This document shows positions 12,389 through 64,000 of a DNA stretch of 64,000 nt, in pieces. Origin of the DNA: Candidatus Kuenenbacteria bacterium. GTDB lineage: Bacteria; Patescibacteriota; Patescibacteriia; UBA2196; GWA2-42-15. The notes under the pieces were generated by a model. It had not been told where the DNA came from. It did no database searches and saw only the letters and a list, made by a program, of their open reading frames with translations. The position numbers and the translations under genes were made by a program. How positions within the stretch are numbered: the first letter of the stretch is position 1; each line of letters starts with the position of its first letter. The DNA is taken from positions 6,147-70,146 of the forward strand of contig JAAZOM010000021.1 of assembly GCA_012797775.1 (NCBI GenBank). The letters are read 5' to 3'.

Positions 12389-12469
12389 GCCACTATAGCT
12401 CAATGGTAGAGCGCTGTGCCTGTACACATGGCTCGGAGGTTTCCGGTTCAAGTCCGGGTAGTGGCACCA
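12389..12469 (+). tRNA. tRNA-like gene with canonical acceptor, D and T arms and an encoded CCA, but a non-canonical anticodon arm; identity unassigned
   Basis: Acceptor GCCACTA/TAGTGGC + A + CCA. D-arm TAGCTCAATGGTAGAGC. T-arm TCCGG-TTCAAGT-CCGGG. Between them are 23 nt instead of 17: a 7-bp stem with one U-U mismatch and a 9-nt loop TGTACACAT. Confidence 0.55.
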
Positions 12470-47293: not shown

Positions 47294-48499
47294 CTAAAAG
47301 CCAGAAGACATATTATACATAGGCATAATGACAGCCGCGACCATGATACCGACCCCCACGCCCATAACTACCATAATCATAGGCTCTATAAGACTAATAA
47401 GGTTGGCGACCAAGGACTCGACCTCTCTAGCGTAGAAATCGGTCATTTTGCTCAAAACATCACTGATGCGGCCTGTTTTTTCGCCAACCGAAAGCATGTG
47501 GGCAATCATAGGCGGTATCTCCTTGCTCTTCAAAAATAACGTGGCAATAGGATTGCCGTCCTGGACATCTTTGGCTGTGCGGTCGATTAGGTCTTTGTAG
47601 TAAGCATTGCCCACAACATCACTGACAATATTCAAAGAGGTAGTAATGGGGACCCCGCCTTCCACTAAAGTTGCCATGCTGCGAGTAAAGCGCACGAGAT
47701 AAATACGCTGGAAAAGTGTGCCAAAAACTGGCAATTTCAACTTGAGATAGTCCCACTTGCGGCGAGGCCCGGGCTGACGAAGTAGATATCTCATGCCGAC
47801 AACGAAAATAACAGCAAAAATAATTATGGCCCACCAATAATTTACCAAGAAAGCACTGGTGCCGATCAAAAGTCTCGTGGCCAGCGGCAATTCGCCGCCA
47901 GTTTCCGATAATATAGCAGTAATTTTTGGTACAACGAAAACCATCATTATAATACCGACGCCGCCGAGGGCCGCCAAAATAAAGGCGGGATAAATCATTG
48001 AGCCCTTGATCTTACTCATAAGAGCATAATCTTTTTCTTGCTCATCAGCCAGATAGTTTAAAACTTTGTCCAAGCTGCCCGACGTCTCCCCGGATCGCAC
48101 CATGGCAATAAAAAATGGACTAAATATCTTTTTGTGGCGCTCCAGAGAGTTGGAAAGCCTTTCGCCGCCCTCTACATCATCGGCGATTTCGGAGATGGCA
48201 GACTTAAAAGCATTGTTTTCTGTCTGTTCTATCAAAATACGCAATGACTGCACAATGGGAAGAGTGGCTGTAGACATAACTGCTAATTGACGAGAAAACA
48301 TAACTAGATCTTTTATTTTTACTCTATTAAAAAATGGCAGACTGATATTGAGCGCTGTTTTTTTGGCTTGAGCTTCAAGAAAAATAATAGCAACCCCTTG
48401 TTCACTAAGGGTTGCCACGGCATCATTTTTGTTGATAGACTCGATAAGCCCCTCAACACTCTGTCCTTCTTTGTTTTTGCCTCTATATTTGAATATCAT
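47294..48499 (-). CDS. pilC: Type IV pilus assembly platform protein (GspF family)
   Basis: Two T2SSF repeats, 3 TM helices, 401 aa. Confidence 0.85.
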   Translation of the reverse strand: MIFKYRGKNKEGQSVEGLIESINKNDAVATLSEQGVAIIFLEAQAKKTALNISLPFFNRVKIKDLVMFSRQLAVMSTATLPIVQSLRILIEQTENNAFKSAISEIADDVEGGERLSNSLERHKKIFSPFFIAMVRSGETSGSLDKVLNYLADEQEKDYALMSKIKGSMIYPAFILAALGGVGIIMMVFVVPKITAILSETGGELPLATRLLIGTSAFLVNYWWAIIIFAVIFVVGMRYLLRQPGPRRKWDYLKLKLPVFGTLFQRIYLVRFTRSMATLVEGGVPITTSLNIVSDVVGNAYYKDLIDRTAKDVQDGNPIATLFLKSKEIPPMIAHMLSVGEKTGRISDVLSKMTDFYAREVESLVANLISLIEPMIMVVMGVGVGIMVAAVIMPMYNMSSGF

Positions 48500-48502
48500 A
48501 TA

Positions 48503-49591
48503 TTAATTGGCAACATGAAATTTTTGAGCCATGGCCTGAAAATCTATTTTATCAACAGCCGCCTTTAGGGCATCAGTATAACTAACTTCTCCGGTTTTTA
48601 CCAACTCCAAGAGTGTCTGGTCTAGGCTACGCATCCCCTCTTCTTTGGACATTTGGATGACGCTTGTCAGCTGAGCAAAGCGTCCTTCTCTGATTAGGGC
48701 GCGGGAAGCAGAGTTGGAAATAAGAATTTCCATAACGGTAATCTCACCACCGCCACGACGCGGCAAAAGCTGCTGGACCAAAACCCCCAACAAGATCTCA
48801 GCAAGAGTATCTTTTGTTTTTTCACTTTCACTTTCGGGCACCAGCTTCACGAGATTATCAACAGCATCGGCAACAGAATTGGACTCGGTAATAGCTATTA
48901 CTAAGCGGCCACTTTCTATAAAACTAAAAATATTATTTAAAATATCAGCACTTTCTATCTTGGAAAGAAAAACAATATCAACGTCGCTGTCTTTGGAAAA
49001 CTTGAGGGCGTCAAGATAGCTGCCGCTATCGCGGCCTATCTCCCGCTGTTCAATAATGCTCTTTTCAGAAGTAAGAATATACTCTACAGGCTGTTCAAGA
49101 GTCAAAATATATTTTGACTCTGTTTTGTTAATATTATTTAAAAGAGACAAGGCTGTTGATGTCCGCCCGGAACCGTGGTGTCCAGAGATGATTATCAGAC
49201 CGCTTTTGTTTTTGGTTAAGTCGGCAAATTCCCGACTAATACCCAAAAAATCTGGGTCATTGATGACAGTCGGGATATAAGTAAAAATCATTGACAGACT
49301 ATTTTTTTGATAAAAGATATGAATTTTGAAACGAATATCACCCTCAAATGTGTGGGTAATAATAATAGATTTTTTTTGTTCAAATTCAGCTACTTCCTCT
49401 TTCGATAAAATAATTTTGACCACATCCTCCAAAAATTCATTACCAACAATATCTTCACTATCAAGAAGAACAAGGCGTTGATCTGAACGGACAATGGGCT
49501 TGGAGCCAGGCTCTAAATGAAAACAAGAAGCACCACTTTTAACAACACTATTTATTATTTTGTTGAGTATAAGGCTGCTTTGAGTAGACAT
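48503..49591 (-). CDS. pilT: PilT-like retraction ATPase homolog with degenerate Walker A (GHHGSGRTS; Lys replaced by Arg) and non-canonical Walker B/Asp box
   Basis: PilT-like N-terminal domain and C-terminal His-box region. The CGG Arg codon was confirmed on the DNA at ~49172. The expected ...GEMRD... region reads DVDIVFLSKIESAD. Confidence 0.75.
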   Translation of the reverse strand: MSTQSSLILNKIINSVVKSGASCFHLEPGSKPIVRSDQRLVLLDSEDIVGNEFLEDVVKIILSKEEVAEFEQKKSIIITHTFEGDIRFKIHIFYQKNSLSMIFTYIPTVINDPDFLGISREFADLTKNKSGLIIISGHHGSGRTSTALSLLNNINKTESKYILTLEQPVEYILTSEKSIIEQREIGRDSGSYLDALKFSKDSDVDIVFLSKIESADILNNIFSFIESGRLVIAITESNSVADAVDNLVKLVPESESEKTKDTLAEILLGVLVQQLLPRRGGGEITVMEILISNSASRALIREGRFAQLTSVIQMSKEEGMRSLDQTLLELVKTGEVSYTDALKAAVDKIDFQAMAQKFHVAN

Positions 49592-49621
49592 ATTGGTTGG
49601 GACATTAGAATTATTTAAAGA

Positions 49622-51352
49622 TTATTCTTTGGTAACTGTTAATATTTCTTCAACGGTAGTTTTGCCTTCGAGGGCCTTGATAATACCATCCTGTTTGAGG
49701 GTCAACATGCCTTGTTGCACAAAAATTTCTTTGACTTTGTCAAGACTAGAACCTGAATAAATAATATTTTTTATCTCCTCGCTGATGTCCAAAACTTCAA
49801 CGATGGCGGTGCGTCCCTTGTAGCCCGTCTGGTCGCAACGAGAACAACCCTTGCCATGATAAATGGTTTTTAGGCTTTCTTCGTTTATGCCCTTTGGTAG
49901 ACTACCCTTGGGGATAGATTGAAAAATTTCTTTGGCTTGATCAACAAGGGTTTTGGGCATGGGTACTGGCTCTTTGCACTCCGCGCAGATACGCCGAACG
50001 AGCCTTTGGGCAATAATAACATTTAGGGTAGAGGCCAAAAGAAATGGTTCGACCTTCATGTCAATCAGACGGGGAATGGCGCCAAAAGCGTCATTGGTGT
50101 GAAGGGTGGACAAAACAGTGTGTCCAGTAAGGCTGGCATGGATGGCCAGTTCGGCTGTTTCGGCGTCGCGTATTTCGCCAACCATGATAATATCTGGATC
50201 TTGACGGAGAATGGAGCGCAAGCCAGAAGCAAAAGTAAATTTCACTTCTGGGTGAACCTGTGATTGGTTGACACCAGTCAAATAATATTCTACTGGGTCT
50301 TCAAGGGTAACAATGTTTACTTCTTCTTTGTTGAGGATCTGCAGGGCGGCATAAAGAGTGGTTGACTTACCGGAACCAGTAGGGCCAGTAACAAGAAACA
50401 TGCCATGCGGTTTAACAATGTTGTTGTACATCAATTCTAAATTTTTACCCTCAAAGCCCAAATCCTCCCAAGTGGAAACGCCGTGAGAAGTATCCAGAAT
50501 CCTCATTACCACCTTTTCTTGACTATATAGGGGAAGCGTAGATACACGGAAATCGATATTTTTGTTGTTGATATTGAGACGAATGCGGCCGTCCTGGGGA
50601 ATTCTGGTTTCGTCAATTTTTAGATTGGCCATGACTTTGATGCGTGAAACTATAGCGGCATGAACATATTTCGGCAAAAGAAGAGATGTTTGCAAAAGCC
50701 CGTCAATACGATAACGCACTCGTGTCTCTCCGGTTGTTGGCTCTATATGAACATCTGAAGCGCCAAGCTCTACGGCGTGTTTCAAAATAACAGAGACCAT
50801 CTTGGAAATGGGCGCTGATTTGATAACCTGATCCATTTTGTCTTCGCCAGGTTCTTCGGTCTCAAATTTATCTTCAGCAACTTTTAAAGCTTCACTGACT
50901 TCAGTTTTGAGGCTACCATATTGCTGCAAAGCTTTATTGAAGCTGCTCGGAGAGGTGATATAATATTCAATCTGCAACCCTTTGCCTCGAGCTACAAAAT
51001 CGGCAGCTTCTCTGGCTTTTATATTTAGGGCGTCAACAAGGGCAACTTTGAGCAAATCATTTTCTTTGGCGAAAACAACCATTTGATAGTTTTCTGCCAA
51101 GTCTCTAGGGAGAATAAAAAGTATGGCGCCAGGAATGCGCTCCTCCCCCAAAACTGTATAGGGTAAGTTAAAAATTGCCGCTTTAGCCTTGGTGATATCT
51201 TCTTCGGAAATATCTTTTGTCTTTTGGAGGGCTTGTTCTAGTTTTGGTAAATCTAACTCTAATTTTAGCTGGTTAATGTCAGCAGCTGTAATTTTGCCAT
51301 TAGATAAAAAATAATCAAGAATTTTATCCTTGAGATCCTCTGTTTTTTTCAT
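49622..51352 (-). CDS. pilB: Type IV pilus assembly ATPase (GspE family)
   Basis: N-terminal GSPII domain, Walker A GPTGSGKSTT, and the tetracysteine CAECKEP...CSRCDQTGYKGR. Confidence 0.9.
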   Translation of the reverse strand: MKKTEDLKDKILDYFLSNGKITAADINQLKLELDLPKLEQALQKTKDISEEDITKAKAAIFNLPYTVLGEERIPGAILFILPRDLAENYQMVVFAKENDLLKVALVDALNIKAREAADFVARGKGLQIEYYITSPSSFNKALQQYGSLKTEVSEALKVAEDKFETEEPGEDKMDQVIKSAPISKMVSVILKHAVELGASDVHIEPTTGETRVRYRIDGLLQTSLLLPKYVHAAIVSRIKVMANLKIDETRIPQDGRIRLNINNKNIDFRVSTLPLYSQEKVVMRILDTSHGVSTWEDLGFEGKNLELMYNNIVKPHGMFLVTGPTGSGKSTTLYAALQILNKEEVNIVTLEDPVEYYLTGVNQSQVHPEVKFTFASGLRSILRQDPDIIMVGEIRDAETAELAIHASLTGHTVLSTLHTNDAFGAIPRLIDMKVEPFLLASTLNVIIAQRLVRRICAECKEPVPMPKTLVDQAKEIFQSIPKGSLPKGINEESLKTIYHGKGCSRCDQTGYKGRTAIVEVLDISEEIKNIIYSGSSLDKVKEIFVQQGMLTLKQDGIIKALEGKTTVEEILTVTKE

Positions 51353-51361
51353 AAAATAAAA

Positions 51362-51682
51362 TTACTGAGCGAAATAAGGAGCAAAGGGATCGGCTTTGCC
51401 AACATTGCTAGGCACTATTGGCCAGTCACCTATTTTTTTTAACTTTGCGAAGAGACTATCTTCCAAAATGGCTGCCTCTTTTTGGGCGGGGTTAGCGTTG
51501 GCTCCGGTTTGAATAGTGGTGTTAATTAGGCTATTAACCTCACTATTATTATAAATATTGGCCACTGAATCATTTTTGGAATTATTAAAATAAATATAAA
51601 TATTTAGACCGGCCATCAAAGCTATGACCGCTAAATAGGTGATTAATTTCTTTTTTGATAATTGAGAGCGATTGGCCAACAT
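51362..51682 (-). CDS. Small membrane-anchored protein in the pilus operon (possible PilP-like component)
   Basis: 106 aa with an N-terminal TM helix. Assigned by position only. Confidence 0.4.
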   Translation of the reverse strand: MLANRSQLSKKKLITYLAVIALMAGLNIYIYFNNSKNDSVANIYNNSEVNSLINTTIQTGANANPAQKEAAILEDSLFAKLKKIGDWPIVPSNVGKADPFAPYFAQ

Positions 51683-51686
51683 AAAA

Positions 51687-52310
51687 CTATTTAAGATAAT
51701 AAGCAGTTAAAAATACGGATAGCGAGCCATCAGAAGGGGTAAAATTGAAAGAGTTGATGTCCATCAGTCTGATATTGTTTTCGATAAGGGCAAAAAGCTG
51801 TTTAACTTTATTGTAACTAATATTGGAAAGGCTAAAATTAATACTAAGGGATTTTAGTTGTCGAGTAACGTTTTTTTCTGCCTGAGCGCCCCCAGAACCC
51901 GAAGGAATTTTTTGCGGTTCAGGTTTTTTTTCTTCATTTAGTTGGATACTAATGCTCTCTACCTTGGCCTTAACTTGTTCTGACAGGCTCTCAAGGTTGA
52001 TATAAAGATTGGCTTCATCAGGACCAATGGGAATAATTTCGCCAACCTTTTGCTTGTCCTCAGAGCTTATGGCATCATAACTCATAATGATTTTTTTGTA
52101 TTTTTGGATCTGGGACATTTTCTGGTTGAATTCTGATTCTTTGGCCGAATAAAGAGTCTGATTTGCTTTATATTTGTTGTTCTCTGGGCTAATAAGAAAA
52201 AAATAACCCGGGAGTAATAAAATAAAAAAAAGTAAAAAGACTAAAACCCCAAAATGTTTTTTATAAAATGGTATATTCTTTTTTTGTTCTTCGGTGACGG
52301 TTGTTTCCAT
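51687..52310 (-). CDS. PilO-like pilus assembly protein
   Basis: N-terminal TM helix and a coiled coil. Assigned by position and architecture in the pilMNO block. Confidence 0.45.
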   Translation of the reverse strand: METTVTEEQKKNIPFYKKHFGVLVFLLFFILLLPGYFFLISPENNKYKANQTLYSAKESEFNQKMSQIQKYKKIIMSYDAISSEDKQKVGEIIPIGPDEANLYINLESLSEQVKAKVESISIQLNEEKKPEPQKIPSGSGGAQAEKNVTRQLKSLSINFSLSNISYNKVKQLFALIENNIRLMDINSFNFTPSDGSLSVFLTAYYLK

Positions 52311-52322
52311 ATCTTATTTTTA

Positions 52323-53357
52323 TTATTGCGGTTGAGTATTGTTGTCGGCATTACCCACCTTTTCAATCACAGAGTGGGGAACAATAAAACTTATACTAAA
52401 AGACACACCGGGATCACCTGGCTGTTCTGTTTTTTCAAAGGTCAGATTGGTCAATTTTACATCTTGGTAAATCGGGCTGGAATTTAAAACTACTAGCTCT
52501 TCTGCCATGGAGCGCAAGTTTAGAGCTTTGCCGCCGAGATCAACACCGCCGAGGTCAGTCACCGATAAACCCGTAAAATAAACGTTGCCAGCTGTATGAT
52601 TTTCCAGGGTGGGGAAAAACTGACTCCAGTAGACATGATTCTTGAAAACATTGTTCAGATTATTAAACTGCTGGGAAAGACTACCATAATCTTTTATCTC
52701 TGATTCAAATTCGGTTATTTTTTTATCTATCAATATGAGTTTTTCTTTAAGCAGATTTATATCCTCATTGTAGCGCTTATTTTTGCTCTCAAAATAGATA
52801 TAGGGAGAAAAAACAACTAACAAGCTGATAATAAAAATAAAAAAATAGCTCCAAATAATCTGGGTGTCGGTAAACCCCTTGGGGCTGCTGGGGAGTAAGT
52901 TCACAACCAATCCTGGCTCATCAGTATTTTTATTGGCAGACTTGACCTCATTGAAACCACCAATTTCTTTCTTGACCTGGACCACCTTGGTGGAAGGAAT
53001 AATTTTGGCGGGAGGAGAATAAGTGCTTACTGGAGAATGGGTCGGGGCAGCGGGTGTTGTTTTTGGGGGCTGAATTTTGACCTCATTCACGGCGACAACT
53101 GACGATTCTTTTGGGCTTTTTAATTTCTTCTTAAATAGACGACCAAAAAAAGACGGCTTGGGTGTCTTTGGCTTGCCAACAACATGCGAAGGTTGCGTGT
53201 TGGCTATAATTTTTTTGCCATCATCTTTTGCGGGCATATGAAGACCGGGGCTTACTGGGTCCTTTTTGGGACTGTGGTGCCTGGCTTGCTGTAATTCTCC
53301 GGGTAAAAAATTTATGCCCTCGTCTTTGTCGTTGTTATTTTTTGGGTGATCAAACAT
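52323..53357 (-). CDS. PilN-like pilus assembly protein with long Pro/Lys-rich disordered N-terminal region
   Basis: A TM helix at ~170 aa followed by coiled-coil and periplasmic domains. It sits directly downstream of pilM. Confidence 0.5.
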   Translation of the reverse strand: MFDHPKNNNDKDEGINFLPGELQQARHHSPKKDPVSPGLHMPAKDDGKKIIANTQPSHVVGKPKTPKPSFFGRLFKKKLKSPKESSVVAVNEVKIQPPKTTPAAPTHSPVSTYSPPAKIIPSTKVVQVKKEIGGFNEVKSANKNTDEPGLVVNLLPSSPKGFTDTQIIWSYFFIFIISLLVVFSPYIYFESKNKRYNEDINLLKEKLILIDKKITEFESEIKDYGSLSQQFNNLNNVFKNHVYWSQFFPTLENHTAGNVYFTGLSVTDLGGVDLGGKALNLRSMAEELVVLNSSPIYQDVKLTNLTFEKTEQPGDPGVSFSISFIVPHSVIEKVGNADNNTQPQ

Positions 53358-53363
53358 AAAAAA

Positions 53364-54563
53364 TTATATTTCTCTCATAGCCAGTCCAACAGCAACAGAG
53401 AACCGCGGACCGATTTCGGTCAAGACTGGTTTTAGCTCCAAGGGATAAACTATCTTATCCCAAGGGTCGCCGATAATAACTTTGATGTCTAAGATTTTGG
53501 AGAGAAAAGATGGCAATTCCGGCAAAAACGAACTGCCTCCGGTTAAAATTATTTTCTCTACCTTGTTCTGAGTTGGATTTTGCGCCAAATAAATATCCAG
53601 AGAATATTTTATCTCATTAATAATCGGATTGATGGCTGTTTTTATCGTATCCGGCAGACCGCCTGGGCCAAGCGAAGAAAAGCCAATATCTCTTTTAAAC
53701 TGTTCGGCCCGACCGAGATCCACGTTTAAACTAGACATTATTGATTTGGTTAGGGTGGTACCGCCGACGTCAATACTTCTGGTGAGGACTGGGATGCCAC
53801 TTTCTATAATGCAAATATTACTAGAAACAGCCCCAACATCAACGATCATAATAGAGGCTGGATCATTGCCGGCCAAAGAGCGCTCAAGAGCAAAGGATTC
53901 TGTTTCTAGGCTGACAAGCTCCAGCTCGGCAGCACGGAAAATCCGAATATATCTTTCTACTATTTTTTTGGGTGCGGCAGTTAGAAGAACTTTTGTGTTA
54001 TTTTTTAGTAGTTGATTGACTGGAGTGCTGCCCTTGACGGTTCCTTTGTGGCTAAAAATTTTGTCAAGGAAGGAGCCCTGCTTGGCATCACCCGCTTCGC
54101 CATTTGGAGAGACGGCATTCTCTTTATTGTTCGGGTTTGTGTTGTTAATCGGCGGAATAACACTCTTTTTGTCTGGCCGCACGGGGACGACCTTCCAGTC
54201 GAGGGTCATCTCTTCCATGGGAAGGGGAATAAATTTTTTGGCTTCCCACTGAATAGCTTTGGCTAGGTCTTTTTTGCTCATGGAAGGGAGATTGATAATC
54301 GAACTAAAAACAGAAAAGCTAGGCAGGGCGGCAACAACTTTTTTGCTGCTCATGCGACTTTTTTTGCAGATATCTTTGATAATGTTGACAATTTTATCCT
54401 CCATCTCTTTGGATGAGGAACGGATAATGTCAGTGGGCTGCTCTACATAACCATAGGTTAAAAGTAAGGCTCGACCCCCCTTGTCTTGTAGTTCCACAAT
54501 TTTAATGGCGGAAGTACCTAAATCAACGCCTAAATAGCTTCTCTTTGGACTAATTATATCCAT
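53364..54563 (-). CDS. pilM: Type IV pilus assembly protein PilM (actin-like ATPase fold)
   Basis: SYLGVDLGTSAIKIVEL...; the pattern DVGAVSSNICIIE...GGT is PilM/FtsA-like. There is a ~60 aa insertion. Confidence 0.8.
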   Translation of the reverse strand: MDIISPKRSYLGVDLGTSAIKIVELQDKGGRALLLTYGYVEQPTDIIRSSSKEMEDKIVNIIKDICKKSRMSSKKVVAALPSFSVFSSIINLPSMSKKDLAKAIQWEAKKFIPLPMEEMTLDWKVVPVRPDKKSVIPPINNTNPNNKENAVSPNGEAGDAKQGSFLDKIFSHKGTVKGSTPVNQLLKNNTKVLLTAAPKKIVERYIRIFRAAELELVSLETESFALERSLAGNDPASIMIVDVGAVSSNICIIESGIPVLTRSIDVGGTTLTKSIMSSLNVDLGRAEQFKRDIGFSSLGPGGLPDTIKTAINPIINEIKYSLDIYLAQNPTQNKVEKIILTGGSSFLPELPSFLSKILDIKVIIGDPWDKIVYPLELKPVLTEIGPRFSVAVGLAMREI

Positions 54564-56407: not shown

Positions 56408-57352
56408 ATGGAATTGTTAAAAGAAATAACGGAAAAAGATCTAGGCATTAGTGAGGAAACGATCAGCGAGACAATCAAATACAAAGTCCGCCGGGCTGCT
56501 CGGGCGGTGGTTTTGGATCAGGAAAATAAGGTGGCAATAGTGTGGAACGGTAAAGAAAAACACCATAAAATTCCCGGGGGTAAAATAGAAGAGGGCGAAG
56601 ATATTCAAGAAGCGCTGCGGCGAGAAATAAAAGAAGAGGTTGGTTGCCAAGCGGAAATGATCGGGGAGGTGGGTTGCATTGTAGAATTCAAGAACAAATT
56701 TGAAGAATTGCATTTTTCTTATTGTTACTTGGCAAGAATAAAAGGCGAAAAAGGAGAACCGGAGTTTACTGAGCAAGAAAAAGAACATGGTTTCCAGCTT
56801 AAATGGGAGTCATTGGACGAGGCGATAAGTTTGTTCGGGAATGATCAGCCCGATGGCTATTGGGGTAAATTTATGTGGCGGCGAGATTTTGATTTTTTGC
56901 TGAAAGCCAAAGAACTATTAGATAATGAACAGAAAAATAAGCGACCATTGGTGGGTGTTGGAGTGATGATCCAGAATAAAAAAGGCGAAGTATTGATAGG
57001 ACTACGCAAGAGCCAACACGCTAATGGCGAGTGGAGCTTCCCGGGCGGGCATGTGGAATTCGGGGAAAGGATTGAAGAGACAGCAAGAAAAGAGGTCTTG
57101 GAGGAGACCGGACTAGAGATTGAAAAAATGGAATTGATTTCGGTGGCTGACCAGATGCGCTATATAGAAACAGAGGGCAAACATTATTTGAATATCGGAT
57201 TTAAGGGAGAGTATGAGGGTGGAGAACCAAAAGTATTGGAACCGGAAAAATGCGCCGAGTGGCGGTGGTTTTCACTCGACAATCTGCCGACTCCCCTGCT
57301 AGAAGGGACGGAGCTAGTGATAAAAAATTACTTAAAGGGGAAGATATATTAA
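56408..57352 (+). CDS. Tandem-domain NUDIX hydrolase
   Basis: Two NUDIX boxes: GGKIEEGEDIQEALRREIKEEVG and GGHVEFGERIEETARKEVLEETG. Confidence 0.8.
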   Translation: MELLKEITEKDLGISEETISETIKYKVRRAARAVVLDQENKVAIVWNGKEKHHKIPGGKIEEGEDIQEALRREIKEEVGCQAEMIGEVGCIVEFKNKFEELHFSYCYLARIKGEKGEPEFTEQEKEHGFQLKWESLDEAISLFGNDQPDGYWGKFMWRRDFDFLLKAKELLDNEQKNKRPLVGVGVMIQNKKGEVLIGLRKSQHANGEWSFPGGHVEFGERIEETARKEVLEETGLEIEKMELISVADQMRYIETEGKHYLNIGFKGEYEGGEPKVLEPEKCAEWRWFSLDNLPTPLLEGTELVIKNYLKGKIY

Positions 57353-57373: not shown

Positions 57374-57407
57374 AAAAAGGGAGCTACGCTTGTAGCTCCC
57401 TTGGTTC
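57374..57407. terminator. Bidirectional rho-independent terminator after NUDIX (+) and after the rSAM-cluster operon (-)
   Basis: GGGAGCTAC-GCTT-GTAGCTCCC hairpin flanked by A-run and T-run. Confidence 0.65.
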
Positions 57408-57424: not shown

Positions 57425-57511
57425 TCACTTTTTTTTGACGACGGGATTTTTGCGCTTTACCGTCAGAGTCGTGACCTTGCGGGAGTCCAGAACCTTTTTA
57501 CATTTTGACAT
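57425..57511 (-). CDS. Candidate small ORF, 28 aa, Lys-rich (MSKCKKVLDSRKVTTLTVKRKNPVVKKK), with a strong Shine-Dalgarno
   Basis: Found manually; it is below the ORF-track size cutoff. GGAGGTGA sits 5 nt upstream of the ATG at 57511. It ends just before the terminator hairpin, 37 nt downstream of the YkgJ-like gene. Confidence 0.25.
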   Translation of the reverse strand: MSKCKKVLDSRKVTTLTVKRKNPVVKKK

Positions 57512-57548
57512 CTTACTCACCTCCTCATTGTCATTGTTGTTTTTTTGT

Positions 57549-58085
57549 TCACGCCGGATACCTTCCAAGCGGGAATAAAACTTGAGATCGATTTGGTCCG
57601 TATGGGTATTTACTTAGGTTTTCCACCGCCAACCAGGTATCCACGACTCTTTTTAGAAGATCCGGGTTCATTTTAGAAAAAAGTCGTTGGGCTTTTTGTT
57701 TGAAGGATTTATTTTGAACCGCAGACCAAGCACAATCAAGTTGTAATACCACATGGACTATACCCCCTTCGCACGAAAAATCCAAAGGGAAAAGTCTGCA
57801 GAATAGCGGTCTTTTCTCGTGGATAGAACAGAGCCCATTTTCTCTCCACGGGCAAGGGGGTTTATAGATCTCAACGTCTATTGGCCCCTCCAAGAAAGGG
57901 TTGATAAATTTACTCTCGTTGACCTGCAGAATTTCAACCCCTGCCTCATAAAGTGGCTCTTCTTCTTCTGGCATGAGCCAAATATAGCCGCGACAATCAT
58001 CGTGGGTGCATGACGAACAGGCTCGACTAATGCCACTCAATAAAACATCCAAGGCTGCATACAATTGATCAAGATTTGCTATCAT
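57549..58085 (-). CDS. YkgJ / UPF0153 family cysteine-cluster protein (putative Zn/Fe-chelating domain)
   Basis: CSSCTHDDC followed by CSIHEKRPLFCRLFP, which matches the family motif C.IY..RP..CR.FP. It overlaps the rSAM gene by 4 bp. Confidence 0.6.
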   Translation of the reverse strand: MIANLDQLYAALDVLLSGISRACSSCTHDDCRGYIWLMPEEEEPLYEAGVEILQVNESKFINPFLEGPIDVEIYKPPCPWRENGLCSIHEKRPLFCRLFPLDFSCEGGIVHVVLQLDCAWSAVQNKSFKQKAQRLFSKMNPDLLKRVVDTWLAVENLSKYPYGPNRSQVLFPLGRYPA

Positions 58086-59380
58086 GTCACCACCTCCCTT
58101 ACGGCTCCAATTTCTATCAGCTTGCTGACGAATGATCGGAACTCCGGCTCTTCAACTTCTTCAGAGAAGCGCCCCACCAAAATCTCCTCTGCACATTGCC
58201 CAGAAGAAATTAGGAATCGGATAATTTCCGTAGCGGTTTCATCGATACGAATCGCCTGATAGCGGGTTATAAGATAAGGAATACGGTGAAATGTATTCAA
58301 TATAGTATAATTATCCACCATCAGCCGCCGATATGGTTTTGGGAAGGTGATCGGTAATGCTCGACGTCGGATTTTTCTCAATGGGTTGGGTGGGCTGTTA
58401 AGGCCCCGGACAGCATAATCAACGCAAAATCCACACGCTTGACTGCAATCAACCTTACAACCGCAGAGGCATTCTGACAAAACCGGGCAAGACCGGCACG
58501 GTTCTGTGACCCAGGACAGATCCCGAAACTCTTGAAGCTCCTTGCTCTGCCATATCGCCTCAATGGGTTTTAACAGAACATTACCATAAACCTTTATTGA
58601 TTGATTGCAGACACGGACATCGCCGTCCGGATTGACGGCCGCAAAGGTTATCCCTGCTCCACAGTCAGAATGCATGTTCTCGGTGATCAGCCTCGGGTCT
58701 AGACAAAAAGGAATGGCAGTACCAAAGCCGACCGGCATGCCAAAATCATCACGCGCTTTAATCATCTGCCCTAAGGCAATCTGGAATTGCTCTAGTGAGG
58801 GCTTCAACACATTAGACATCTGGCTACCGAGACCGCCATCCTCATAGCGATCAACGAACACCGATTCCATGCCGAGCTGGCTGGCAAGCTTTATAACTTC
58901 GTACACCTGATCATAGTTCCATGCGGTCAAAACCGGTATACACCGAACATCAAAGCCATCTTGAATATATTGTCTAATATTCTCAATGGTTTTGTCGTAC
59001 CCGCCAGGAAAGCGGGTATGACGTTCGTGCGTGGTTTTGTTTCCGTGAATAGGAATACCAATACAGGCGAGACGACGCGAAAGGCCCTGTAAATAAATAA
59101 GCCCGTTCGTCACAATTGTTATGGAAGAACGCCGCGCCAGCAGGTTGATGTATTGATTCAGCTTTCCGACTCCTAATAATGATGGCTCTCCGCCAATCAA
59201 ATAGACGTGGGGAACCCAAGAGTCATAGATAGACTGGATGATTTTGTCCATCTTTGTCTCGTTAAAGGGTACCCCGCGGAGAGGGTTGTAACAAAAAACA
59301 CATCCCGGATCTGAAGTGCAGCGATAGGTCGTTTCTATATGCACCAGATCCGGAACAGGAGGAATTTGGATTTTGAACAT
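58082..59380 (-). CDS. Radical SAM protein with SPASM/twitch auxiliary-cluster domain and C-terminal RRE(PqqD)-like extension
   Basis: The N-terminal cluster motif is CTSDPGCVFC (Cx5Cx2C rather than Cx3Cx2C), followed by a Gly-rich SAM site (LIGGEPSL). The SPASM Cys cluster is CNQS...CRSCPVLSECLCGCKVDCSQACGFC. About 90 C-terminal residues show a beta-beta-beta-alpha-alpha pattern. Confidence 0.75.
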   Translation of the reverse strand: MFKIQIPPVPDLVHIETTYRCTSDPGCVFCYNPLRGVPFNETKMDKIIQSIYDSWVPHVYLIGGEPSLLGVGKLNQYINLLARRSSITIVTNGLIYLQGLSRRLACIGIPIHGNKTTHERHTRFPGGYDKTIENIRQYIQDGFDVRCIPVLTAWNYDQVYEVIKLASQLGMESVFVDRYEDGGLGSQMSNVLKPSLEQFQIALGQMIKARDDFGMPVGFGTAIPFCLDPRLITENMHSDCGAGITFAAVNPDGDVRVCNQSIKVYGNVLLKPIEAIWQSKELQEFRDLSWVTEPCRSCPVLSECLCGCKVDCSQACGFCVDYAVRGLNSPPNPLRKIRRRALPITFPKPYRRLMVDNYTILNTFHRIPYLITRYQAIRIDETATEIIRFLISSGQCAEEILVGRFSEEVEEPEFRSFVSKLIEIGAVREVVT

Positions 59381-59389
59381 GTCAACCTC

Positions 59390-59695
59390 TCAATGTTGTG
59401 TTTTCATCACCTCTATCATCGCCTCTGTAGAATCATTCGGGGTGGCGCGATTTCTCTTTTCCTTACCACATGTAAGGCAAAGGTGAGTGATTATATACTC
59501 GCCTGAACGACTCTCCACATAAACGGGCTTCATCAGGCCATGACACGGATTCTTTCTATCGCCAGGATTATTGTCGACATGCTGGCTGTAAAGACAGCTA
59601 GGGCAATGATTAGTATATCCATTGCCGGTTATCTCCGCTCCACAGTGTCCGCACGTAAAATTTTCCCGGCAACGCGTGAACTTCTTTGCTGACAA
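59390..59695 (-). CDS. RNHCP-domain (Zn-ribbon-like) small Cys-rich protein
   Basis: CRENFTCGHCG...YTNHCPSCLYSQHVD...NPCHGLMKP matches the RNHCP domain pattern. There is a 9-nt gap to the rSAM gene. Confidence 0.6.
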   Translation of the reverse strand: MSAKKFTRCRENFTCGHCGAEITGNGYTNHCPSCLYSQHVDNNPGDRKNPCHGLMKPVYVESRSGEYIITHLCLTCGKEKRNRATPNDSTEAMIEVMKTQH

Positions 59696-59910
59696 CTCTC
59701 TACCTCCATTAATTTTTTAAGGTACAATGCATGCAACTAAACATGCGTTATTTAGCAGATAATCATAAACTTATGACTATCAAAATATTTTTGCACATTA
59801 TCCAATATTTGTCAAGTTTTATACTATATACTCATTTTTAATGGAACATTAGAAAAACAAAAAAATACACACAAAAAAATAAAATATTTGGTGTTTTTTA
59901 CTCCAATCTT

Positions 59911-60678
59911 TTATTTTTTTCTCAATAAAACAATATTACTGGCTTTGGCTTTCCCTAGCTCTGCTATTCGATCTCGCTCAAACCAGCCCAAAAATTCAAA
60001 CGTACCATTCAGTCTAACCAACGATATCAATTCCTGGGGAAAGATCAATTTGAGCTCGTCTTGGTCTACAAACTCAGTTTTCTTCCCGTGATCATTTATA
60101 TTTAATTTGATTGTCTGCAAAATCGTCTGTTTCAATGTGTCCTTTACCCCAATCTGATAAGCAGTCATTACTGTTATTCCATCTTTTTTCATAGTCCAAG
60201 TTTGTGGTTTGTAAAATTCTTTATTATCCCAATCCAACGGCATGTTTTCTATGAGGTATAAACCACCTTTGTTGAGAGAGGCCGAAACGGAATTCAAGTG
60301 TTTTAGAAAATCATTATTATTTTTTAGATAAATGATAGAGCCCATCAAAATATAAGCAAAATCAGCCCTTTCTTTTAACTTAAAATTGGCCATGTCTTTT
60401 TGAACTTTTTTAATCTTAATTTTTCCCTGTTTTTCTTTTGCTCCCAAGTAACCCAGCATAGCAGCGCTTGAGTCAAGACCAACTGCCTTGTATCCCCTTC
60501 GAGCAAATTCCAACAATTGGCCAGCTGGGCCACAGGCAATATCTAATACTTTTTTTACTTTAATCTTGCTGTATTTTTTTATAAACTCTTCAAATAAATT
60601 TACCTGTTTTTTAATATCGCGGAAGTCAAAGGCAATATCATAATATAGGGGGTTGTTATAAATTTTACTCTCTGCCAT
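59911..60678 (-). CDS. Class I SAM-dependent methyltransferase
   Basis: Motif I VLDIACGPAGQ and motif post-I GLDSS. Confidence 0.8.
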   Translation of the reverse strand: MAESKIYNNPLYYDIAFDFRDIKKQVNLFEEFIKKYSKIKVKKVLDIACGPAGQLLEFARRGYKAVGLDSSAAMLGYLGAKEKQGKIKIKKVQKDMANFKLKERADFAYILMGSIIYLKNNNDFLKHLNSVSASLNKGGLYLIENMPLDWDNKEFYKPQTWTMKKDGITVMTAYQIGVKDTLKQTILQTIKLNINDHGKKTEFVDQDELKLIFPQELISLVRLNGTFEFLGWFERDRIAELGKAKASNIVLLRKK

Positions 60679-60865: not shown

Positions 60866-61048
60866 ATGTCCAATCTTCCTTTTGATGTCGGTGACCGCGT
60901 CATTAATTTAACGGCCGAATTGCATGATTGGCCTGATAAGAAAGGGGTGGTTGCCAAGGTTGATGGCGGTCAATTTTTAGTCCGCTACGATGATAGCGGC
61001 AATGAGCGCTGGAAGCAATACATCAACCTACGCCTATCAAATGCATGA
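60866..61048 (+). CDS. Small hypothetical protein (60 aa)
   Basis: Complete ORF with a plausible RBS, between AT-rich promoter regions. Confidence 0.35.
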   Translation: MSNLPFDVGDRVINLTAELHDWPDKKGVVAKVDGGQFLVRYDDSGNERWKQYINLRLSNA

Positions 61049-61161: not shown

Positions 61162-64000
61162 CTAGTTGCCGCTAGGGATTTTGGCTAGATCGGCGTTGGT
61201 AATGCCTAGAGACAGCTTGGGGAAAACGCTCATAGCATTGGCCCAAGTGATCTCCCAGCGCTGGCCGCTAAAATCCACATACCAGAGGCGACCACGGTCC
61301 TCGACTTGGAGTAAAAATCTACCTCTATTTTGATATGCCATAGTCCTATCAAAAGACAATTTGTCATTACCGCGATTGGCTGGGTTAGAAGCAACAAAGG
61401 GATTGTAACCATACTTCACTTCTGAATAATCGCTGAAGCCATCATCGTCACTATCAACATCAGAAGAAACAGATTCTAGGTTGATGGGGATTTTGTTCAA
61501 ATCATTATTAGTAATACCGGCTGCTAGAGATGGCAGGACCGACATCATATTGTCAAAGGTAACCTCGTATTTTTTATAATTTACTGGATAAATATAAAAG
61601 ATACGTCCACGATCTTCAGTCGCCAATAGCAGACGGCCGGCTAGTCTTTTGGCAAAATTCGGATCGGCTTTGGGCGCTGGCAAGGTAATCAAGCCAATCG
61701 CCGCTTGGCCGATAAGAGCAGTGTCATCTTCGGTAACCAAGCCATCGCGATTTACATCAGCTACATATTTTTGATAAAGATTTAGAGCGGCGACGCTAGT
61801 GCCTTTTACGTGACCAAGTACCAAAGCGGCATCATAGGTCTCGGCTAGACCATTACCATCAACATCGCCAAATCTGACTGGCAACTTGTCTACTTTACCC
61901 ATAGCATAATCAGATATCACCTCTACGTCGGTATTGTCTAAAACACTATTGCTGGTCACTTCAGCTACAGTCAATTGTGCTGTTGTAAGGGTGCTCTGCT
62001 TGGCCAAGTAGCGAGCCAAGAGTGCGGCATCATACATTTGGACTTGACCGTTGCCATCGAGGTCGCCAAGGAGCGAAGATTCATTTGTTTTTATATTGAA
62101 AGAATATATTTTACTTTCAACAGTTGTATTGTTGGCCGTGCAAACAACTTTATAAAAATAGTTGACGTTAGCTTGAAAACCAGAAATATTGTTTGTCCAA
62201 TAATAGTAAAAGGTTGGTCTATCGCTTGGCCTATTTTGCGCAGCCATTTGAGTCGATGAAAAATCTTTTAAGTCTGAACTGGTACTATACAAGACATCAC
62301 AATTGCTGGAAGAGCGATTCAAATACCAATTAAAAACTACAGAATTTGAACTCACAATATCAACTTTGACGTCAGTAATAATTGGATTAGTGTCATCAAT
62401 TATTGTAACTGTTTTTGTTAATACATTGTTGCCTTCATTTGATTCGTCAACAACATTGTTGTAGGTAGGGCTAAGACTATTCCTATCTACTTCAACCTTC
62501 ACATTGGAATAAACAGAGCTGGTGGCCAAACCCTCAAAAGAAGAAATTAATACAAGCGGATATATACACTGTCCGGCTTCAATGGGTTCAGTGCTACCGT
62601 TTATGGCTGTCTTTCCATTAACAGTAAATTCTGTCGATATCTGGGGATTAGATGATTTAGAGATCATACCACGGTTACAGACTTTAGCCCTTAATACATA
62701 GTCGAGACCACCAAAATTTCTGGCATATTCAATATCTTCAACTGTTAAATCTGGCTTGTTGGCTGACGGTACATAATTTGAATTGTACAGAACGGAGCTA
62801 CCCCCAAACGTCTTTACTAGAGCACCGTCTACCCAAGGGCCAAAAGATAATGAGACAGGGGTGGTGGATAAATCTGACCACATAAATTGGCCATAATCAC
62901 CCAAGGAAGTAAGCTTGACCATGCCGCCGTCTGCGTTGGTAACAGTCCCTTTGACAATGTAAGTCCTCATGCGACCAGCGGTAATAGTCTCTGGCGCCAA
63001 GAGCGCAAATTCAATTATTGATTCATTTCCTATGGTACCATTGCCTAATATTAATGATGGGTTGGTCTCTTCATATAAATAGGTGCCCGCTATACCTACG
63101 TTGCCGCCTGTCTCTAGTTTAAAACTAATCTTTTTCCAGGCGACATCACCAGCAGCGTCAGCAGCCACGGTAAACTTGTATAAAGTGGCCGTACCATTAT
63201 TTAAAACACTTGTTGGCAAACTCTGCGTCATAAACGTCGGGACGGTCTTTCTGACGGTCATGTTATTGCCATAGACGTCGTTGCCAGCGAAGGTGTTAAC
63301 CATGTTGGATGACTCACCAAGAGCAGAAAAGTTGTTGTCGCCATCAAAAATCAATCTTGGTTGATCACCGGAGTCAGCGCCGGCGCTGATGGTCGGAATT
63401 TCAGCTTTGACGGTCAATATGGCAGTAGAATCTTTGGGTACATACATATTCAAACCAGTGAAGTCAACGATGCCTCCGGAATTCAGATAACCTTCTTTGG
63501 TCACAGTATTGCCAGATTTGTCTTTATATTCCAAAATAACTTTATTGATGGAATCATAGTTACTCGGGTTGTCTTCCAAAATTCTAACTTTTGTTATGGT
63601 AAATGGTTCGCCAGAGGCGGTAAATTTGATGGCATTCATTTTGACGGTGGTGCCGGCAACAATGATAGCCGATGCTGGTTTGCCTCCGTCAGATGAAGTA
63701 ATGGAACCAGCAGCGAGGGTCATGGCCTGCATAGTCACATCGCCGGTGGTGACCGATACACCAGAGGTGGCTGTGCCCTGCAAATCAACTACAAGCGCAA
63801 AGCTATTGGTGCCACTACCCGCCTTAATATCTGCATAAACATCAATCACTTTTGACTCGCCAGCGGCTAGATTTAAGTTATAAGCCGTGAAAACATTTTC
63901 AGTGGTATTATTAGAGGCCAAGGTGACCTTGGTTGCACCGATCTGCGTGGAGCCAGTCATCAGTTTCATGTTCTGCATGGTGCCTGATGTGGCCTGAGAA
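61162..64000 (-). CDS. Large surface protein (more than 945 aa) with three dockerin-like Ca-binding repeats and two C-terminal ~50-aa repeats; N-terminus lies beyond the window end (partial)
   Basis: The frame is open from 63978 to 64000 upstream of the listed Met. Dockerin-like repeats are DLDGNGQVQMYDAALLARYLA, GDVDGNGLAETYDAALVLGHV and DVNRDGLVTEDDTALIGQA. The C-terminal repeats are ATEDRGRIFYIYP...GITNNDLNKIP and QVEDRGRLWYVDF...GITNADLAKIP. Confidence 0.7.
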   Translation of the reverse strand, partial: SQATSGTMQNMKLMTGSTQIGATKVTLASNNTTENVFTAYNLNLAAGESKVIDVYADIKAGSGTNSFALVVDLQGTATSGVSVTTGDVTMQAMTLAAGSITSSDGGKPASAIIVAGTTVKMNAIKFTASGEPFTITKVRILEDNPSNYDSINKVILEYKDKSGNTVTKEGYLNSGGIVDFTGLNMYVPKDSTAILTVKAEIPTISAGADSGDQPRLIFDGDNNFSALGESSNMVNTFAGNDVYGNNMTVRKTVPTFMTQSLPTSVLNNGTATLYKFTVAADAAGDVAWKKISFKLETGGNVGIAGTYLYEETNPSLILGNGTIGNESIIEFALLAPETITAGRMRTYIVKGTVTNADGGMVKLTSLGDYGQFMWSDLSTTPVSLSFGPWVDGALVKTFGGSSVLYNSNYVPSANKPDLTVEDIEYARNFGGLDYVLRAKVCNRGMISKSSNPQISTEFTVNGKTAINGSTEPIEAGQCIYPLVLISSFEGLATSSVYSNVKVEVDRNSLSPTYNNVVDESNEGNNVLTKTVTIIDDTNPIITDVKVDIVSSNSVVFNWYLNRSSSNCDVLYSTSSDLKDFSSTQMAAQNRPSDRPTFYYYWTNNISGFQANVNYFYKVVCTANNTTVESKIYSFNIKTNESSLLGDLDGNGQVQMYDAALLARYLAKQSTLTTAQLTVAEVTSNSVLDNTDVEVISDYAMGKVDKLPVRFGDVDGNGLAETYDAALVLGHVKGTSVAALNLYQKYVADVNRDGLVTEDDTALIGQAAIGLITLPAPKADPNFAKRLAGRLLLATEDRGRIFYIYPVNYKKYEVTFDNMMSVLPSLAAGITNNDLNKIPINLESVSSDVDSDDDGFSDYSEVKYGYNPFVASNPANRGNDKLSFDRTMAYQNRGRFLLQVEDRGRLWYVDFSGQRWEITWANAMSVFPKLSLGITNADLAKIPSGN

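Follow-up and report, generated by a model that had tools for sequence, protein, structure and literature searches.

The stretch of DNA analysed here, which we call the window, comprises 64,000 nucleotides of contig JAAZOM010000021.1 (assembly GCA_012797775.1) from a Candidatus Kuenenbacteria bacterium. Its minus strand encodes a compact operon built around a radical S-adenosylmethionine (SAM) enzyme. The operon opens with a TTG-initiated gene for a 101-aa RNHCP-domain double zinc-ribbon protein (59695..59390, Pfam accession PF12647). This gene is followed by one for a 432-aa radical SAM/SPASM enzyme, hereafter rSAM1 (59380..58082, Pfam accessions PF04055 and PF13186), whose C-terminal domain resembles a RiPP recognition element (RRE; RiPP, ribosomally synthesized and post-translationally modified peptide), and by one for a 178-aa cysteine-cluster protein of the YkgJ/CxxCxxCC family (58085..57549, Pfam accession PF03692). 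The last gene, recognized by its conserved homologues, has 28 codons and encodes a putative precursor or substrate peptide, MSKCKKVLDSRKVTTLTVKRKNPVVKKK (57511..57425). The RNHCP and rSAM1 genes are 9 nt apart, the rSAM1 and YkgJ genes overlap by 4 bp (ATGA), and 37 nt separate YkgJ from the peptide gene. Direct reading of the sequence places a Shine-Dalgarno (SD) element, GGAGGTGA (57524..57517), 5 nt ahead of the peptide ATG, and the operon ends at an intrinsic terminator with an 11-bp stem, 6 GC pairs and a T-run (57402..57377).

The open reading frames, gap and overlap lengths, SD element and terminator described in a first-pass annotation of this DNA were all borne out. Pfam upheld its domain assignments as well, with scores of 99.8 bits for RNHCP (cut-off 24), 40.5 bits for Radical_SAM (cut-off 29.5), 40.5 bits for SPASM (cut-off 21.5) and 24.1 bits for CxxCxxCC (cut-off 23). 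That annotation read the operon as a possible peptide or protein maturation system, and a co-conserved peptide and an RRE fold, both described below, support its reading. None of the four outcomes that it had named as refuting this reading was observed. The operon probably constitutes a peptide maturation system of RiPP-like type, with the 28-aa peptide encoded last as its substrate.

Scanning one genome per GTDB species gave a set of 62 loci, which we annotated from six-frame open reading frames, by phmmer with the window proteins and then by domain-wise labels. Homologues of the peptide are present in 55 of these loci, one per cluster. The remaining seven lie on contigs that end inside or beside the cluster, and every locus with enough flanking sequence has a copy. 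In this census, phmmer with the 28-aa query recovered 42 peptides and a motif search 51, and inspection added four more: MSKCKGKL... (L055, where the contig end cuts the copy), VSKCLAVLDGEKITDIQVKTK... (L048), MSKCTAIMDSEKVDKIEVLSDEEDEL (L053) and MSKCTAVLDAKKVESITLEDSSESLNADTESLD (L013).

Residues M1, S2, K3, C4 and D9 of the peptide do not vary in either domain of life, K5 and K12 hardly vary and K21 is near-invariant. A strand-like segment is semi-conserved (K12, [VI]13, [IL]16, [V]18, K21), hydrophobic residues occupy positions 8, 13, 16 and 18, and the tail is variable. Pairwise identity averages 64% for residues 1-21 and 13% for the tail. The core has no aromatic residue, and 47 of 51 peptides contain a single cysteine. 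The nucleotide sequence also looks strongly coding: the entropy values are 0.80, 0.59 and 1.45 at the first, second and third codon positions, the invariant Ser2 is variously encoded by TCA, TCG, TCT, TCC, AGT and AGC, and an SD-like sequence lies no more than 18 nt upstream in 44 of 50 unique loci. The peptide gene is real, looks translated and is under strong purifying selection.

The first-pass annotation had pointed to this open reading frame as Lys-rich. It stands as a gene, and its Lys-rich character does not hold as a conserved trait. Peptide tails range from strongly basic to acidic (median net charge +7), and archaeal members with acidic tails rule out a Lys-rich tail as a family feature. 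Two archaeal variants (L013:5877-5978 and L053:5814-5957, with the peptide start at ~5877) have Thr5 for Lys5 and acidic tails that read …LEDSSESLNADTESLD and …LSDEEDEL.

Current annotation largely passes over the peptide. A profile search of 5.8 billion proteins returned only ~30 peptide entries made by gene callers, all unnamed and without Pfam domains, against more than 170 loci that encode the peptide. NCBIfam holds no model for it.

The association also emerges when the peptide is the starting point. A scan of metagenome contigs with the back-translated MSKCKAVLD core gave at least 120 loci. Among the 120 listed, rSAM1 or YkgJ is encoded in 100. The other loci either extend hardly at all on the side in question or contain further genes of the cluster, namely those for a B12-binding radical SAM enzyme (B12-rSAM), RNHCP or an Amidohydro_2 protein (AH). 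Across genomes the peptide is inseparable from rSAM1 and YkgJ; a co-located, co-conserved precursor gene, as in RiPP clusters, is thus present.

Some loci encode the peptide more than once. In L139, L140, L147 and, by extension, L128, one copy comes after rSAM2+YkgJ (rSAM2 is introduced below) and a second after a divergently transcribed B12-rSAM. In the archaeal-type loci L130 and L182, a peptide gene precedes the block of rSAM2-like and B12-rSAM genes as well as rSAM1. The peptide is thus associated with several different radical SAM enzymes, a pattern that a shared substrate would produce. In a Staskawiczbacteria locus (L011:8171-8851, plus strand), the YkgJ frame runs without a stop into the peptide (…GQKEKPMSKCRAVMDSAKV…), which makes the two either a natural YkgJ-peptide fusion or just in-frame neighbours.

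The consensus gene order in the 62 loci is RNHCP, rSAM1, rSAM2, YkgJ and peptide, where rSAM2 is a second small radical SAM enzyme that is found in most relatives and is absent from the window. The same order in 62 species-level genomes puts the arrangement far beyond chance. YkgJ is encoded in 55 of the loci and RNHCP in 49, immediately upstream of rSAM1, and most absences fall at contig ends. Fusions join RNHCP to rSAM1 (P0005, L007, L008), rSAM1 to YkgJ (P0012, L036) and rSAM1 to rSAM2 (P0086, P0111, L025), and rSAM2 is fused to YkgJ in many loci. The linkage of RNHCP, rSAM1 and YkgJ first seen in the window is therefore conserved elsewhere, in gene neighbourhoods and in Rosetta-stone fusions alike.

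Host organisms include many classes of Patescibacteria, DPANN archaea and the gut 'Firmicutes bacterium CAG:822'. One locus (L053) encodes a split RpoA''-type subunit, which verifies its archaeal origin. In archaeal loci, RNHCP is missing and the peptide gene lies upstream of rSAM1. The CAG:822 locus (L063; scaffold HF990866.1, protein P0134) comes from a human-gut bin and has a complete cluster of RNHCP, rSAM1, rSAM2+YkgJ and peptide; the records list 69 contigs for its peptide cluster. The system is thus not confined to the Candidate Phyla Radiation (CPR) and DPANN, and occurs in the human gut.

rSAM1 belongs to the radical SAM superfamily and to the SPASM proteins by the Pfam scores given above and, for SPASM, by TIGR04085 (35.5 bits, cut-off 27). 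SPASM domains are defined by the motif CX9-15GX4C-gap-CX2CX5CX3C-gap-C and two auxiliary [4Fe-4S] clusters. The SPASM region of rSAM1 (residues ~226-319; 58424..58705, minus strand) has the full seven-cysteine motif (C240, C258, C295xxC298x5C304x3C308 and C319), with a first spacing of C-x17-C that is outside the textbook range. C226, C240, C258, C295, C298, C304 and C308 are invariant in a 27-member alignment, and C319 is nearly so. The family has more than 371 full-length homologues with 52-68% identity, mostly labelled Patescibacteria.

NCBIfam returned 49 matches to rSAM1, none above an equivalog cut-off. PqqE is the best of them (54.3 bits against 381) and MftC the third best (48 against 265). 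Scores were also far below cut-off for QhpD (36 against 453), anSME (28.7 against 349) and PapB (26.2 against 340), and by the NCBIfam cut-offs rSAM1 is not a member of the ScmF, HxsC, StsB or NirJ/AhbD families. rSAM1 thus has no end-to-end match in any housekeeping or named family; such a match was one of the outcomes that the first-pass annotation had named as refuting its reading. A named-family identity, including a sulfatase-type anSME role, was ruled out by these scores and by the lack of a sulfatase nearby. A check for defence-system membership with PADLOC gave generic viperin-like radical SAM similarity only, and a check for phage origin found no relatives in IMG/VR.

The closest structures to rSAM1 in Foldseek are SkfB, SuiB, PqqE and anSME. 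Its closest sequence-profile matches in the PDB are PqqE (best), SkfB, SuiB, CteB and anSME. The nearest structural and profile relatives of rSAM1 all modify peptides or proteins. It is improbable in the extreme that rSAM1 instead acts on a small molecule, such as a tetrapyrrole or cofactor intermediate (compare NirJ and AhbD), with the peptide being incidental. Weak NCBIfam similarity to NirJ2, AhbD and HpnH (46-49 bits) and the Joint Genome Institute label 'AdoMet-dependent heme synthase' on a few homologues would fit such a role, but these scores are far under the family cut-offs and no tetrapyrrole genes lie nearby. The RRE domain and the strict linkage to the peptide in both search directions also argue for a peptide substrate.

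The radical SAM cluster motif of the window enzyme reads CTSDPGCVFC (59291..59320, minus strand), a Cx5Cx2C spacing that the first-pass annotation had flagged as non-canonical. The variant is present in the window as described, but not as a system trait. Cx3Cx2C is found in 115 of 116 scorable homologues and in 48 of 48 scorable loci, and the window protein alone carries two extra cluster-loop residues in the 27-member alignment. The motif is thus a species-level insertion, confined to the window species, and for that reason we do not count Cx5Cx2C as a hallmark of the family. An assembly error can be dismissed because the identical protein is encoded on 8 independent contigs, several of them from different samples.

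The cluster-loop insertion could be taken, together with the loss of rSAM2, as a mark of an inactive or decaying relic in the window genome. AH and B12-rSAM are likewise absent from the window, and peptide position 6 is Lys in place of the usual Ala. We consider a relic quite unlikely, as the open reading frames are intact, with good SD elements, translational coupling and a terminator, and rSAM1 retains every other invariant residue of its family. The recurrence of the same rSAM1 protein in different samples is at odds with decay, and a layout without rSAM2 is found in at least 11 other species, which points to a stable variant. The Cx5Cx2C spacing is tolerated in other radical SAM enzymes, for example HmdB.

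The ~90-aa tail of rSAM1 (residues ~345-432; 58085..58348, minus strand) had been likened in the first-pass annotation to a PqqD/RRE peptide-recognition domain. RRE domains are winged helix-turn-helix folds in which three helices follow a three-stranded sheet. An AlphaFold2 (AF2) model of the tail alone has a beta-beta-beta(-beta)-alpha-alpha-alpha order and a predicted local distance difference test (pLDDT) score of 91.6, and in the AF2 model of the whole protein the tail is the best-predicted part beside the barrel. The tail is conserved throughout the family, and its strand YLVTRYQT is nearly invariant.

The top 26 Foldseek matches of the tail in the PDB are almost exclusively RRE domains, with template modelling (TM) scores of 0.6-0.71 and root mean square deviations of 1.8-3.4 Å over 80-88 residues. 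They include TruD, McbB, LynD, TbiB1 and lasso B1 proteins with leader peptides, the PbtF RRE, ThcOx, TigE, MccB and SuiB. A profile search of the tail against PDB sequences returned nothing meaningful. With fold comparison positive and sequence methods negative, the tail is an RRE by fold and not a sequence-level PqqD member; its predicted structure confirms the likeness that had been noticed. The RRE would bind the precursor peptide, as suggested by co-conservation of the YLVTRYQT strand with peptide segment 12-21.

The YkgJ proteins of the clusters match PF03692 in 26 of 26 homologues (best E = 1e-7) and share seven invariant cysteines (C23, C26, C31, C78, C86, C96 and C118). Two Cys4-type sites are present in RNHCP, along with a strongly conserved sequence, GYTNHCPxCLxSKHVDxNPGDR; in the window protein the eponymous motif reads TNHCP. 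No solved structures were found for RNHCP or YkgJ. Two relatives of this cysteine-cluster fold have been studied by experiment, and both N-methylate primary amines. FliB is a flagellin lysine N-methylase that uses a [4Fe-4S] cluster and SAM (PMC8598068). DpdM, which belongs to DUF3109 and has YkgJ as its E. coli homologue, methylates preQ1 at its aminomethyl group (PMC10516641). By analogy, we hypothesize that the YkgJ of this operon may be a peptide amine methylase that acts on Lys or on the N-terminus. A role as an Fe-S electron-transfer or auxiliary-cluster partner is equally possible.

The small peptide, RNHCP and YkgJ had all been named as candidate substrates. In principle, the enzymes could mature RNHCP or YkgJ as anSME does sulfatases, and the small open reading frame would then encode an unrelated regulatory or structural micro-protein. 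Both partners are Cys-rich, adjacent and translationally coupled, and anSME is among the structural neighbours of rSAM1. We nonetheless regard this explanation as highly improbable. Archaeal clusters without RNHCP still keep the peptide, and the fusions of YkgJ and RNHCP to the enzymes are of a kind typical of subunits, not of substrates. The occurrence of RNHCP without a radical SAM enzyme in Alphaproteobacteria indicates a general-purpose module recruited here, again not a substrate. The peptide gene is also duplicated beside additional radical SAM enzymes, and an RRE is a peptide-docking module. Only the small peptide is therefore retained from the original three candidates, and we consider the identification of the substrate and of the RRE well supported.

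rSAM2, whose closest solved relative is SkfB, correlates with the sequence of the peptide. Ala6 is present in 43 of 43 loci with rSAM2 and in 3 of 12 loci without it (Fisher p = 3e-8, a statistic that ignores phylogeny). This association points to Ala6-Val7, or a site close by, as the place where rSAM2 acts, and explains the Lys6 of the window peptide. Other accessory genes in the 62 loci encode AH (15 loci), B12-rSAM (6 loci), a pyridoxal phosphate (PLP)-dependent aminotransferase-like enzyme (6 loci) and another methyltransferase (6, archaeal loci). The Amidohydro_2 protein could be a hydrolase that removes a follower sequence.

The window has a minimal variant of the layout, MT-RNHCP-rSAM1-YkgJ-peptide, and no further accessory gene of the system (rSAM2, AH or B12-rSAM) was found across its 64 kb. 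MT is a 255-aa class I SAM methyltransferase (59911..60678, minus strand, Pfam accession PF13649) that probably serves as an accessory tailoring enzyme. In 10 of 62 loci a close homologue (E 1e-45 to 1e-89) is encoded no more than 6 kb from the cluster, in variable position and orientation. The best NCBIfam match of MT is a daptide RiPP methyltransferase (54 bits against a cut-off of 175). This upstream methyltransferase probably belongs to the system.

No exporter or ATP-binding cassette (ABC) transporter, protease or peptidase, or immunity gene recurs in the 62 neighbourhoods; in this respect the clusters lack the peptidase and/or exporter of RiPP clusters. This absence bears on where the product acts. 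A radical SAM/SPASM enzyme, an RRE and an adjacent short peptide form the standard signature of sacti- and ranthipeptide clusters. Many of the peptide tails are cationic, and the patchy cross-domain distribution suggests the horizontal spread of an accessory trait. The product might accordingly be a secreted RiPP with an antimicrobial or signalling role in inter-microbial conflict or host interaction, for example a single-ring sactipeptide or ranthipeptide. We think a secreted product unlikely. From Patescibacteria to Nanoarchaeota the core hardly changes, whereas conflict peptides diversify fast. All peptides start at MSKC and so have no N-terminal leader, and the tail can be acidic.

The missing exporter, protease and immunity genes and a core that is near-invariant in two domains together make an intracellular modified peptide or cofactor precursor likelier than a secreted antibiotic. 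The invariance of M1-S2-K3-C4 and D9 points to a conserved target or role and not to an arms-race toxin. A more specific proposal, which we put forward as possible and no more than tentative, is that the peptide gives rise to a conserved intracellular product, either a cofactor or a modified micro-protein, made by a radical SAM maturase with YkgJ and RNHCP as integral subunits and transferred between domains among reduced-genome symbionts. By these we mean Patescibacteria, DPANN archaea and the gut CAG:822-type Firmicute.

In the mechanism that we propose for the peptide maturation system, the RRE would dock the strand-like peptide segment K12-K21. This segment, conserved in step with the RRE strand, is most plausibly the docking site. 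Since it is C-terminal to the invariant core, the peptide would have a follower and not a leader arrangement. Docking would place the core, S2-K3-C4-(K5)...D9, in the rSAM1 active site, where 5'-deoxyadenosyl radical chemistry and the two auxiliary clusters would modify it. The core is free of aromatic residues, and Cys4 and Asp9 are its invariant reactive side chains; these features favour a Cys4-centred reaction, most likely, by analogy with PapB and QhpD, formation of a Cys4-Asp9 thioether. Oxidation of Cys4 is a less likely alternative.

YkgJ would act on the same bound peptide, maybe as an Fe-S/SAM N-methyltransferase by analogy with FliB and DpdM. RNHCP may serve as a zinc-ribbon accessory subunit, in bacteria only, and the upstream class I methyltransferase may add a tailoring methyl group. 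In most relatives, rSAM2 would act at or near Ala6. The window lineage may have lost rSAM2, after which peptide positions 6 and 7 would have drifted (Lys6).

Several observations weigh against the proposed system or parts of it. First, modification of the peptide is itself entirely inferred, and the unusual Cx5Cx2C motif means that activity of the window rSAM1 is not guaranteed. Second, the AF2 model of the whole enzyme is only moderately confident in the core and is poor in the SPASM region, with pLDDT values of 31-39 for residues ~292-340. Third, the case for an RRE depends on how consistently the Foldseek matches point to this fold and on TM scores of 0.6-0.7; Foldseek gives modest E-values (3e-3 to 0.3), and the Pfam PqqD model matches just 1 of 17 tail sequences (PF05402, E = 0.11). 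The link between Ala6 and rSAM2 is weakened by shared ancestry being left out of the statistic. Finally, the distribution is patchy, with the system in ~60 of 185,579 species representatives, which fits poorly with a housekeeping cofactor.

The roles proposed for the two partner proteins face objections of the same kind. The YkgJ proteins of the clusters are related to FliB and DpdM at the superfamily level only: DUF3109 is weakly matched in 4 of 26 members (best E = 0.0021), and none matches a FliB model. RNHCP occurs with ~57-62% identity in Alphaproteobacteria beside GapR and with no radical SAM enzyme nearby, and we rejected it as a system-specific component on this ground.

These alphaproteobacterial copies were observed in contigs of gut and environmental metagenome-assembled genomes (L069-L074), with RNHCP at 6001-6315 (577-891 in L074). 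In this fixed arrangement the RNHCP gene comes directly after the gene for the DNA-binding protein GapR, overlapping or abutting its stop, and is translationally coupled to it; no radical SAM, YkgJ or peptide gene is nearby. The GapR context hints at an autonomous, possibly nucleoid-related role of RNHCP.

Other features surround the operon in the window. A candidate operon promoter (TTGACA-17-AAAAAT with TG; 59787..59815, minus strand) lies upstream of RNHCP; it is no more than a match to the consensus, and constitutes weak evidence given 9 promoter-like sites in the sequence and an expectation of 8.9 from shuffles. Convergent with the operon, and sharing its terminator region, is a gene for a 314-aa tandem-NUDIX protein (56408..57352, plus strand). 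Weaker NUDIX matches (E ~1e-3 or better) occur near the cluster in 3-4 of 62 loci (L029, L034 and L041).

Upstream of MT, the window encodes the C-terminal part of a large predicted surface protein (61162..63978, minus strand) that runs past the window end. In L001 this protein has 1627 aa, with faint CARDB and dockerin-like matches. Between MT and the giant surface protein is a 60-aa open reading frame (60866..61048, plus strand) that is gene-called on all independent contigs and has no Pfam match. Farther away, a type IV pilus/type II secretion system (T2SS)-like block (47294..54563, minus strand) encodes PilM, a PilN-like protein, two unknown proteins, two T2SSE ATPases and T2SSF. This block is typical of Patescibacteria.

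ARAGORN reports an 81-nt tRNA-Cys with anticodon ACA at 12389..12469 (plus strand). Rfam aligns the same stretch as a tRNA with an enlarged anticodon/variable region. With its long variable arm and CU-GUA-CA loop, it reads better as a type II tRNA-Tyr(GUA), and the label is probably a tool error.

Literature searches found no description of a system that combines RNHCP, a radical SAM enzyme, YkgJ and a small peptide. The suggestion in the first-pass annotation that this is not a described RiPP class agrees with these searches and with the curated families that we examined. A 2022 survey presented graspetides, the products of unrelated ATP-grasp clusters, as the first RiPPs known from CPR bacteria (PMC8939145). 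The present system would be a second, unrelated peptide-modification system in the CPR, and one that spans DPANN archaea too. Its host organisms are otherwise biosynthetically minimal. Three poorly understood modules, namely YkgJ/UPF0153, RNHCP and the C-terminal RRE of a SPASM enzyme, are linked by the cluster to a single very small substrate that can be synthesised. If our reading is correct, it would give the UPF0153/YkgJ and RNHCP families their first defined substrate, and hence a function, and would represent new peptide chemistry on an aromatic-free core.

The system can be compared with several known ones. Like SuiB/StrB, CteB, AlbA/SkfB, PapB, PqqE with PqqD and MftC with MftB, it combines a radical SAM core, a seven-cysteine SPASM domain, a PqqD-like RRE and an adjacent short precursor. 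Identity between rSAM1 and these maturases is only 16-18%, and no equivalog cut-off is reached. The RRE of rSAM1 is C-terminal to SPASM, whereas that of known radical SAM/SPASM maturases is N-terminal or stand-alone. The peptide differs from their precursors in having its conserved core at the extreme N-terminus, the presumed docking segment after it, a single cysteine and a core free of aromatic residues. The cluster also differs in its obligatory YkgJ, its usual RNHCP and its lack of a protease or exporter.

PapB and QhpD make Cys-to-Asp/Glu thioethers, and the motifs modified by PapB are repeated Cx3D. The system described here is like both in its SPASM class and in an invariant Cys donor with a downstream invariant Asp (C4 and D9). 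Unlike the PapB substrate, its peptide has a single Cx4D, and a crosslink here is purely hypothetical.

Pyrroloquinoline quinone (PQQ; PqqA/D/E) and mycofactocin (MftA/B/C) biosynthesis share with the system a very short conserved precursor, a SPASM radical SAM enzyme, an RRE and intracellular processing with no exporter. No homologues of PqqB/C/F or MftD/E/F were found in the system. The conserved residues are S-K-C-K...D here, versus Glu/Tyr in PQQ and Val-Tyr in mycofactocin. Unlike in those pathways, accessories vary by lineage (AH, MT, B12-rSAM and the PLP enzyme), and the distribution is patchy, in reduced-genome lineages. The likeness to FliB and DpdM lies in the Cys-cluster domain and in their primary-amine substrates: the peptide offers K3, K12, K21, mostly K5 and a free N-terminus.

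Bottromycin is a 'follower peptide' RiPP, with its core right after Met1. Its enzymes are not homologous to those described here, which include no YcaO and no P450, and the analogy is organisational only. At that level, both systems have the core at the N-terminus right after Met1, with recognition and variable sequence C-terminal to it, and both draw on the same kinds of enzyme, namely B12-rSAM methylases, an amidohydrolase and a SAM methyltransferase.

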